Source: a virus
Lineage: Duplodnaviria; Heunggongvirae; Uroviricota; Caudoviricetes
Virus record (IMG/VR): IMGVR_UViG_2579779052_000002
Reading direction: 5' to 3' (one strand)
Length of the DNA: 46,256 bases
Positions 25,676 through 26,317 of the stretch are shown piece after piece (position 1 is the stretch's first letter; every line of letters starts with the position of its first letter). The translations under genes were made by a program, and so were the position numbers. Below the pieces are notes generated by a model. It was not told where the DNA came from. It saw only the letters and a program-made list of their open reading frames with translations, and made no database searches.

Positions 25676-26194
25676 ATCACCACCAACGGATTGCCCAGAC
25701 CAGAACAGCAATGGCCACAATACGAATGGCAAATGCCATTGCCCGAATAAGTTCAGCACTCATCTTTTTAAAGTTCACGATTTCAGCGCAATGACCAGTT
25801 TTGCCAGCCCATACAGCATCGGAGACACAGCAATACCAACAGCCACCCACTTAATAGCAAAAGCCAGCGCTCTGCTGATGTCATCAGTCACTGTCACCCC
25901 AGCAGCCCCGACGAAGACAACATCACCCAGGCGAGGGACAGAAAAAGAGCAACCAGCATTAGTGAAAATGAAATACCGACAATCACACACAGGACCTTTG
26001 CCGGCGTTATGAGTTTGTCTGACATAGCTACCCCTTAATTGCCACAATTAACTGGGATACTACCCATAAAAAAGGGATGCTCCAGACCAGCAAAAATTTC
26101 CAGTTTGGTAATTGACTAATCATGAGTCGCAACTCCCTAATCAGTTTGCTAAAATCAATCAAGGCAGCCTCCCATAGCTTACTGCCATAAAAAC

Positions 26195-26235
26195 AAAACC
26201 CCGCTTGCTGCCAACAAACGGGGTTTTTACTTTTA
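26195..26235. terminator. bidirectional intrinsic terminator hairpin downstream of endolysin
   Basis: AAAACCCCG-loop-CGGGGTTTTTACTTTTATT; T-rich tract follows the stem on both strands. Confidence 0.55.
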
Positions 26236-26317
26236 TTCACTTACATTTTGCCAGTTCGCAGGATTTCGTGTTATCCGTCCGCCTTGGCCAACGTCATTTA
26301 TTAGCAAAATATTCTGC

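Follow-up and report, generated by a model that had tools for sequence, protein, structure and literature searches.

Lambda and phage 21 carry dual-start holin/antiholin pairs, and in lambdoid late operons a Q-modified polymerase reads through terminators. The moron concept for lambdoid phages is said to come from Juhala and colleagues (2000). A classical moron is preceded by a promoter of its own, ends in a terminator and is transcribed in the prophage, and bor and lom of lambda act as lysogenic-conversion morons. The hok/sok and ibs/sib loci are type I toxin-antitoxin systems. The releasin gp25 of phage Mu (DUF2730) is a protein of 99 amino acids (aa) with an N-out topology and a cytoplasmic domain of 73 aa (PMC9239132), and PasB of prophage PP6 in enteropathogenic Escherichia coli (EPEC) E2348/69 is a northern-validated, Hfq-dependent small RNA (sRNA) of 83 nucleotides (nt) (PMC8550237). 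Here, we compare these systems with the gap of 642 nt between the endolysin gene R and the i-spanin gene Rz in the IMG/VR virus record IMGVR_UViG_2579779052_000002, a stretch of 46,256 nt that we call the window. The gap is probably an accessory module of the lysis cassette, in which a terminator hairpin precedes four translationally coupled genes for membrane peptides that would be made late and probably affect the envelope or lysis.

Four small genes between R and Rz

All features of the window are on the minus strand unless marked (+). The gap, its open reading frames (ORFs) and its two neighbours are listed in the direction of transcription.

26318-26851, minus strand, endolysin R, a phage lysozyme of 177 aa (Pfam PF00959, E = 1e-23; phrog_7), upstream neighbour of the module
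25676-26317, minus strand, gap from R to Rz, 642 nt
26228-26317, minus strand, spacer of ~90 nt between the stop codon of R and the hairpin, which travels with the R allele and is the left recombination boundary of the module
26185-26227, minus strand, intrinsic-terminator hairpin (stem at 26227-26195) followed by a U-rich tail, GUUUUUAUGG, which forms the 5' end of the mobile module of small genes
26163-26184, minus strand, leader of ORF A, in which a short GGCAG...CUGCC stem reaching to the start codon encloses the Shine-Dalgarno sequence GGGAGG (26173-26168)
26028-26162, minus strand, ORF A, 44 aa from a TTG start, MIDFSKLIRELRLMISQLPNWKFLLVWSIPFLWVVSQLIVAIKG (phrog_6632, E = 1e-12, residues matching the 45-aa profile)
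25894-26025, minus strand, ORF B, 43 aa, MSDKLITPAKVLCVIVGISFSLMLVALFLSLAWVMLSSSGLLG, a predicted single-pass membrane peptide (phrog_4906, E = 5e-21)
25775-25897, minus strand, ORF C, 38-40 aa, VTVTDDISRALAFAIKWVAVGIAVSPMLYGLAKLVIALKS (phrog_3246, phrog_1115 and phrog_4493, E = 4e-27 to 7e-17)
25677-25763, minus strand, ORF D, 28 aa plus stop (phrog_4493, E = 4e-6; phrog_3246, E = 9e-5)
25208-25675, minus strand, i-spanin Rz, 155 aa (PF03245, E = 4e-49; phrog_13), downstream neighbour of the module
25270-25455, minus strand, Rz1, an ORF of 61 aa embedded in Rz, with the lipobox-like LVVSAC

Comparison with related sequences indicates that the four small genes are real, conserved and under purifying selection, with ratios of nonsynonymous to synonymous substitution (dN/dS) of 0.12-0.37. 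All four match PHROG families, which are families of unknown function. The four frames are open in 13 of the 13 sequence variants of the 642-nt gap class, and the other sense frames at A, B and C carry stops. Each family is full-length across 60-98% protein identity and in differing neighbourhoods; the small genes are intact across Escherichia and Salmonella, and the A family reaches further. The genes are tightly packed, with a spacing and start-stop overlaps like those of a working operon. Each peptide has one hydrophobic 19-residue window (Kyte-Doolittle 1.9-2.9) with basic residues on its N-terminal side, and the C-terminal tails are mostly 2-5 residues long (14 uncharged residues in B) with at most one basic residue. 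The peptides, of 28-44 aa, are probably single-pass inner-membrane proteins with an N-in orientation.

An earlier note on this DNA, made from the letters alone, had remarked on a gap of ~640 bp between two normally contiguous genes. The length is confirmed and the premise is sound: in the Qin and DLP12 prophages of E. coli K-12, R and Rz abut or overlap with no small genes between them, and in one IMG/VR relative (L058) they are adjacent and the array is absent. Of the four short hydrophobic ORFs proposed in the note, B (26025-25894, 43 aa) and D (25763-25680; 25763-25677 including the stop, 28 aa) are as described. The 31-aa ORF at 26123-26028 is in the right frame, but is probably the 3' part of the 44-aa ORF A that starts at TTG 26162. 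The 33-aa ORF at 25884-25783 (MTSAERW...) was read in the wrong frame. It has no PHROG match, its dN/dS over nine distinct homologous segments is 0.83 compared with 0.12 for the frame of C, and its Salmonella homologue lacks the ATG and contains internal stops; the true gene is 25897/25891-25775 (VTDDISRALAFAIKW...). The note had also stated that the gap holds no ATG-initiated ORF of 60 aa or more, which does not strictly hold, as the plus strand has such an ORF, of 73 aa, opposite the B/C junction (25791-26012 (+)). This ORF is open in 13/13 variants of the 642-nt class, but we rejected it as a by-product of the hydrophobic coding opposite; it is impossible in relatives in which C precedes B.

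The note had left it open whether the ORFs are real small membrane proteins or decayed remnants of an insert. The PHROG groups, the purifying selection, the tight coupled packing and a ribosome-profiling signal of a B homologue (discussed below) support the former. It is very improbable that the gap is a non-functional residue, i.e. a recombination or deletion scar whose short ORFs persist through youth. With 9 variable sites of 558, diversity in the 642-nt class is so low that this class alone cannot prove selection, and C and D lack an N-terminal segment. Decayed copies are also on record: a frameshifted D' gene (a D-type gene of related cassettes) in loci L111 and L113 and a nonsense codon in the extension of L085. 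However, the comparisons between classes and between genera reveal purifying selection in exactly these frames, the order of the genes is permuted without loss of frame, their spacing is that of a working operon, and no indels occur within the gap-size classes described below. The cross-family dN/dS values already largely refute a residue. Homology, which the note had named as a way to recognise a scar or a truncated pseudogene, revealed a compact array and no scar, although C and D do lack the N-terminal segment of their relatives.

ORF A has two possible starts. TTG 26162 lies 5 nt after the GGGAGG Shine-Dalgarno sequence, and the resulting 44-aa form corresponds to E2348C_1413 in the original EPEC E2348/69 annotation. 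An equivalent GTG start is found in 26 of 26 distinct relatives of 45 codons, directly after the conserved AAGGGAGAA. No part of the protein is better conserved in Escherichia, Salmonella, Providencia, Citrobacter, Enterobacter and Klebsiella than the N-terminal extension xDFSKLIRELRxM, with D3, S5-R12 and M14 invariant across the six genera, and the dN/dS of the 26 distinct genes is 0.20. The AlphaFold2 model has helices at residues 4-16 and 21-43 with a break at a proline (predicted local distance difference test score 81). The protein is predicted to have an N-terminal amphipathic helix followed by one membrane helix. The gene is probably 44 rather than 31 aa long, as judged from this conservation. 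Thirteen codons downstream of the TTG, an internal ATG (26123) with its own GGGAG sequence would give the 31-aa form and could serve as a second start. An ORF of 70 aa called by some pipelines from a GTG runs through the terminator and was discarded as an over-extension of ORF A. The A family is small, with only 33 clusters in a profile search of 1.8 billion representative proteins.

ORF B starts 2 nt beyond the stop of ORF A with the Shine-Dalgarno sequence AAGGGG. Intact full-length copies, 63-100% identical, occur in 276 phage records, including most phages that carry Shiga toxin (Stx) genes, where ORF B is placed after the antirepressor gene ant. In a collection of 5.8 billion proteins ORF B forms 103 clusters, all from E. 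coli, and its dN/dS is 0.37 (NG86).

The start of ORF C, GTG 25897, overlaps the stop of ORF B (GTGA), and GTG 25891 is an alternative. The same collection holds 120 clusters of ORF C in E. coli, E. marmotae and Salmonella. Its dN/dS is 0.12-0.15 (NG86), and third codon positions hold 24 of 35 variable sites. By alignment, ORF C appears as an N-terminally short member of a family of 60 aa. The stop of ORF D lies 1 nt before the ATG of Rz, the last codons of D (GGTGGTGA) form the ribosome-binding site of Rz, and Rz is translationally coupled to D. Because C and D match the same PHROG families and have the common motif RAxAFAI(K/R), with A-x-A-F-A-I invariant in alignment A1, we regard them as paralogues. 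Longer relatives of D, of 50 aa, exist (VRKYKRFFLRLSIMKGIEVETP...AIRWW). In the cassettes with such a D' gene (L108 at ~2040-2065; L118, L122 and L124), an upstream ORF of 8 codons, MGREVLSL, follows the conserved leader. The 50-aa gene starts at a GTG that overlaps the TGA stop of this upstream ORF, an arrangement that resembles a device for translational coupling.

The hairpin and the modularity of the array

On the minus strand, the hairpin has a 15-bp stem in the terminator scan and folds with -24.2 kcal/mol (z = -6.0). The fold on the plus strand, also followed by a T-run, is weaker (-15.3 kcal/mol, z = -3.75), and natural variants keep the pairing through G-U pairs that work on the minus (sense) strand only. 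The terminator of the earlier note exists, but it is bidirectional only in a loose sense. RNAalifold predicted 12 pairs in the hairpin from 27 related leaders, six of them with compensatory double changes.

What the note had overlooked is that the terminator is part of the small-gene module. At least 120 IMG/VR loci have the same hairpin and a conserved leader CCTTGAnnAnGGCAAGGGAGAA ahead of a gene of the A, C, D' or E family. Directly after the leader comes the 60-aa C form (MAKYKRILLRLTMKNGLE...), the 45-aa A form, the 50-aa D' form, family E48 or a chimera. This class of hairpin also precedes related small ORFs in unrelated gene contexts, and the unit begins a few bases before the hairpin and finishes at the stop codon of the small ORF. 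Sequence comparison therewith assigns the hairpin to the small genes and not to R. Among the 13 distinct 642-nt gaps, 22 of 84 sites vary next to R, none in the hairpin and 9 of 558 from the hairpin to Rz. The 84 nt adjoining R are the most variable part of the gap, and on this ground we rejected a conserved sRNA made from the 3' untranslated region of R. The flanks of this class vary (R at 94-100% and Rz at 60-99% identity) while the array is near-invariant, which indicates that the array, including the hairpin, is exchanged as a block. The GC content of the small genes is 0.44-0.49 compared with 0.52-0.57 in their neighbours, and the array has a strong AT skew that fits hydrophobic coding on the minus strand.

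The stem in the leader of ORF A is no more stable than shuffled sequence (z = -0.7), and sequestration of the Shine-Dalgarno sequence by it is only a possibility. Four leader types fold around the Shine-Dalgarno sequence, and their inner stems differ in a compensatory-looking way; none of them beats shuffled sequence (z 0 to -1), and a sequestering hairpin was dropped as a demonstrable element.

The modular nature of the gap is evident from 74 IMG/VR loci that have both R and Rz, whose gaps can be sorted by length into six discrete classes that are each free of indels.

297/298 nt, one A-type gene (A')
335/336 nt, D'
438 nt, C and D
487 nt, C and B, in reversed order relative to the window
642 nt, A, B, C and D, the class of the window
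993-1013 nt, a different hairpin, ant and B'

The order of the genes is permuted among these relatives and the frames are kept. By sequence, the small genes form three families: A, B, and C together with D. Members of A and of C/D share interchangeable ends (...IRWW or ...AxK[GS]) and form chimeras. One such chimera in L127, of 51 aa, has an A-type N-terminus (VNLSKILKEFRLMGEKLSNWKF) and a C-type C-terminus (...PFLYGVARLIEAIKQ), which indicates that the A and C families exchange halves; its neighbours are a HEPN-domain gene and a gene of 333 aa of unknown function (no Pfam match). Because C and D of the window lack the N-terminal segment and leader of their relatives, the array looks assembled by recombination between cassettes.

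The context between a SAR-type (signal-anchor-release) lysozyme and Rz dominates, with both genes flanking 89 of 120 pattern hits, and these loci are closely related. Between other endolysins and spanins, the unit lies between a muramidase-like protein of 143 aa (no Pfam match, no N-terminal membrane segment) and Rz; between an HP1-type holin with a SAR-like lysozyme of 161 aa and Rz in Salmonella; and, in Enterobacter, between an endolysin of the soluble GH19 type and an unrelated pair of i- and o-spanin genes. At least two of the endolysin-spanin insertions look independent, which suggests a preference for this junction. The few other contexts, less frequent than the endolysin-spanin site, include a position between a baseplate spike-like gene and the next baseplate gene in SEN34-like myoviruses and, in S. 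enterica subsp. salamae, the junction of the tail genes I and J. The cassette is therefore not confined to lysis cassettes. E. coli K-12 YmfR (e14), considered as a homologue from a baseplate context, is an unrelated two-helix protein. The slot between R and Rz also holds ant genes in Stx phages and in PhiR5_1, and the module is optional: Qin and DLP12 of K-12 and L058 have none.

The array is widespread. A query of 801 nt (25600-26400) that spans the gap has 100% identical copies in many E. coli chromosomes, and at least 80% of it is present in 587 of 5426 complete E. coli genomes, about one in nine. RefSeq already calls three or four small coding sequences in the gap, labelled hypothetical proteins. 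In the sampled phage records the B gene is often unannotated, and where small genes are called, all are 'hypothetical'. The A-type gene between endolysin and Rz is unannotated in SPN3UB (L094), in H-19B and in most of the sampled Stx1a and Stx2c phage records. A-type genes are missed systematically in deposited phage genomes.

Expression, function and competing explanations

A scan limited to the sigma-70 consensus found no sense-strand sigma-70-like promoter between the hairpin and ORF A or across the array, and among 65 cassette variants only one has a sense promoter-like site. Prophage PP6 of EPEC E2348/69 carries an identical array (NC_011601, 1448191-1448832). In the RNA-seq data from this strain, the baseMean values are 1.9 for R, 0.87 for E2348C_1414 and 0.12 for Rz, whereas the Pas sRNAs reach hundreds to thousands (PMC8550237). 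These near-zero counts of flanking and overlapping genes suggest that the lysogen is almost silent at the array. Because no sense promoter was found, the hairpin lies directly upstream and the EPEC lysogen is near-silent, we infer Q-dependent late expression. The peptides would be made only when a Q-modified RNA polymerase reads through the hairpin in lytic growth, at the same time as the holin, the endolysin and the spanin. As long as the phage remains a prophage, the hairpin would keep stray transcription away from the peptide genes and Rz, and the last gene, D, would hand ribosomes on to Rz. The role of the peptides may be a dispensable late effect on the inner membrane, for example on the firing time of the pinholin or on the mode of envelope failure. 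Modulation of lysis or of the envelope is the most likely function, as judged from position and expression logic.

The only published trace of these genes that we found is XECs191, a homologue of B in O157 Sakai, in a supplementary table in which it is listed among the translated intergenic ORFs. In LB, it has a transcriptome value of 30 and a translatome value of 12.6 reads per kilobase per million mapped reads, and a ribosome coverage value of 0.43 (PMC5597208). A search of the literature with protein accessions, PHROG identifiers and peptide strings found no main-text description of the families or of the cassette. In a survey of Stx-phage lysis cassettes (PMC8136144) and a spanin census (PMC6139136), the portions reached by term search contain no passage on these genes.

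The signal in uninduced Sakai, although low, is what would be expected if the peptides were lysogenic-conversion morons, made by the resting prophage to the benefit of the host through superinfection exclusion or modulation of membrane complexes. The genes are present or absent between otherwise collinear prophages, their GC content is lower than that of the neighbours, the slot also takes antirepressor genes and the products are small membrane proteins, all of which fit morons. However, a moron without a sense promoter-like site, with its terminator upstream rather than downstream of the genes, and in a lysogen whose flanking and overlapping genes have near-zero counts despite an identical array, would be unusual. 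The weak Sakai signal is also compatible with spontaneous induction in a subpopulation. Lysogenic-conversion functions are unlikely for these peptides, and we give the moron explanation little credence.

Several observations weigh against a late module with an effect on lysis. The ribosome signal from Sakai is low, and the cultures were uninduced. A lysis-specific role is weakened by the copies of these cassettes within tail and baseplate operons and by the many relatives that lyse without them; a terminator in the middle of the baseplate operon of a myovirus is also awkward for read-through, as Q-type antitermination is not known there. None of the families has a characterised member, and Pfam, NCBIfam and PADLOC hold no family for any of the small proteins in their short or full-length forms. 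C and D of the window lack the basic N-terminal segment and the private leader of their 60-aa and 50-aa relatives, and these truncated forms may be less functional or not functional. In the A family, synonymous divergence (pS) is three-fold lower in codons 2-14 than in the rest of the gene (0.22 compared with 0.64), and the variable sites of these codons show no third-position bias. Part of the conservation of these codons thus reflects a constraint on RNA or DNA, so that TTG 26162 is only the probable start of A. A regulator specific for SAR endolysins, comparable to releasin, is disfavoured. The N-terminus of R in the window does have a hydrophobic SAR-like segment by hydropathy (YGLSAAVLALIAAGAPAP), but the cassette also follows the soluble GH19 endolysin and the 143-aa muramidase-like protein.

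The suppressed synonymous variation at the 5' end of the A genes would also be accounted for if the array encoded membrane toxins under antisense-RNA control, similar to type I toxin-antitoxin systems, with the hairpin ending an opposite-strand RNA that would begin within the ORF or shortly beyond it, cover the ribosome-binding site and silence the toxic peptides. Antisense promoter-like sites occur in 43 of the 65 cassette variants, or in 5 of 11 cassette types compared with 1.35 expected from shuffles; the cassettes are related, however, and this enrichment rests on about four independent cases. Runs of A and T flank the hairpin, which can fold on either strand, although the G-U pairs of its variants work on the sense strand only. 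In the C and D' cassettes, the antisense site (TTGTCA/TGGTCA/TGGACA, 18-nt spacer, TATACT) is made of the conserved KYK...LRLTM codons and would yield an RNA of ~80 nt that is complementary to the Shine-Dalgarno sequence and start codon and ends at the hairpin. No antisense site is present in the SPN3UB-type A45, the Enterobacter A45, L127 or L158. In the window, the candidate is as follows.

26019-26048, plus strand, weak candidate antisense promoter (CTGACA, 18-nt spacer, CACAAT, with TG), 9/12 consensus matches

Such sites are as numerous in this region as expected by chance. The RNA from it, a candidate only, would be ~180 nt long, antisense to ORF A and its ribosome-binding site, and end at the plus side of the hairpin. 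No sRNA of the R-Rz interval is among the entries listed in the EPEC RIL-seq and RNA-seq tables, despite the identical array. Rfam has no match in the window at the gathering threshold and no meaningful one in the gap at E up to 5; the best is ohsC with 21.6 bits compared with a threshold of 50 (E = 2.7). Moreover, type I toxins own a promoter, and none is visible at the array. A precedent exists in the same type of prophage, where PasB is an antisense sRNA in the I-J gap with a hairpin right after the stop of gene I. Taken together, an antisense RNA of the array is a candidate suggested by promoter-like sites and hairpin, and antisense-controlled toxins are a rather doubtful explanation.

The window has its own copy of the PasB locus. 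The interval 7748-7895 (+), between J (4083-7556, minus strand) and I (7899-8579, minus strand), is 98.8% identical to the PasB-encoding I-J region of EPEC. Its near-consensus promoter (TTCACA, 16-nt spacer, TATAAT) and terminator (CCCGCAG...CTGCGGG followed by T7) would produce an RNA antisense to the tail operon and to a sense ORF of 22 codons. PasB was considered as a homologue of the cassettes and rejected, because it resembles them in geometry only; a comparison of the sequences found no similarity.

Besides the late lysis module that we favour, there is a broader but unlikely possibility. The cassettes could represent a class of promoter-less mobile inserts of temperate enterobacterial phages at late-operon junctions, with a preference for the one between endolysin and spanin, doubly silenced by the terminator and possibly by an antisense RNA that shares its hairpin in the manner of PasB. 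Their membrane-active peptides, perhaps with dual-start isoforms, would set the timing of lysis and, in Stx phages, that of toxin release.

The remaining features around the lysis cassette are as follows.

27827-27799, minus strand, terminator-like hairpin in 27760-27909, between a SASA-family (sialate esterase-like) gene and the holin gene
27544-27759, minus strand, class II holin of the phage 21 type (PF04971), the cassette's own holin
27195-27539, minus strand, YdfR/DUF1327 gene
26957-27229, plus strand, gene of 90 aa with a match to phrog_2411 (function unknown), between the YdfR/DUF1327 gene and R
24543-24884, minus strand, small ORF whose N-terminus is lipoprotein-like and whose C-terminal domain is of the TonB type (PF03544, E = 1e-14)

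The position of the last ORF is that of bor in lambda and DLP12. The phrog_2411 gene, on the strand opposite to the lysis operon, breaks it up and has 35 nt in common with the 3' end of the YdfR gene. The sRNAs PasA and PasC were reported at the position between the SASA gene and the holin in related prophages (PMC8550237). With up to 3 mismatches allowed, the published northern-blot probe for PasA finds no counterpart in the window, which means that an sRNA near 27827-27799, if present, would be another variant.

Comparison with known systems

The terminator-first form of the cassette is unusual; the coding sequences, annotated as hypothetical, and the PHROG families were already on record. 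Most sequenced Stx-converting phages have at least one member of these families between their endolysin and spanin genes. If the peptides do influence the moment or the manner of envelope failure, they would matter for burst size and, in Stx phages, for the timing of Shiga toxin release. The promoter-less, terminator-first cassette is a compact example of accessory genes that possibly depend on antitermination, and its form provides a signature for finding more. Carriers for experiments are at hand: EPEC E2348/69 with PP6 has the identical array, and H-19B, SPN3UB and Stx phages have simpler versions.

By family match and by architecture, the peptides are not holins, releasins or spanins. None of the four ORFs matches a holin family of Pfam or PHROG, and they have no charged hydrophilic C-terminal tail. 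A lipobox is absent from the four peptides, which have practically no periplasmic part, and Rz and Rz1 are encoded separately. Searches at E up to 5 (A, C/D and E forms) or up to 1 (B) gave no match to DUF2730 or to any other Pfam family. In contrast to gp25 of Mu, the peptides have only 28-60 aa, are probably N-in and extend 2-5 residues beyond the helix, and the cassette also lies beside soluble non-SAR endolysins and outside lysis cassettes. With releasin they share a small, membrane-anchored and non-enzymatic product encoded a few genes from the endolysin and dispensable in some relatives, and the endolysin of the window has a SAR-like N-terminus, as in Mu and phage 21. The two possible starts of ORF A, 13 codons apart and each with a Shine-Dalgarno sequence, recall the dual-start motif of the lambda and phage 21 pairs.

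Similar to a moron, the array is an optional insert between two late-operon genes, has a lower GC content, encodes membrane products and occupies an insertion hot spot that also takes ant. Insertion with presence or absence among relatives is observed, whereas a promoter of its own is not, and D runs into Rz with no terminator downstream. Unlike morons, the array has its terminator upstream, no convincing promoter and a locus that is silent in the lysogen, and its units are much smaller (~225 nt) and form arrays.

The comparison with type I toxin-antitoxin loci is likewise divided. No promoter for a peptide mRNA is visible at the array, and there is no Rfam or sequence similarity to known systems. 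The likeness lies in hydrophobic peptides of less than 60 aa, a two-strand hairpin next to a ribosome-binding site and antisense promoter-like elements. At the PasB locus, too, a hairpin directly follows a late gene, and the sRNA is antisense to a short ORF.

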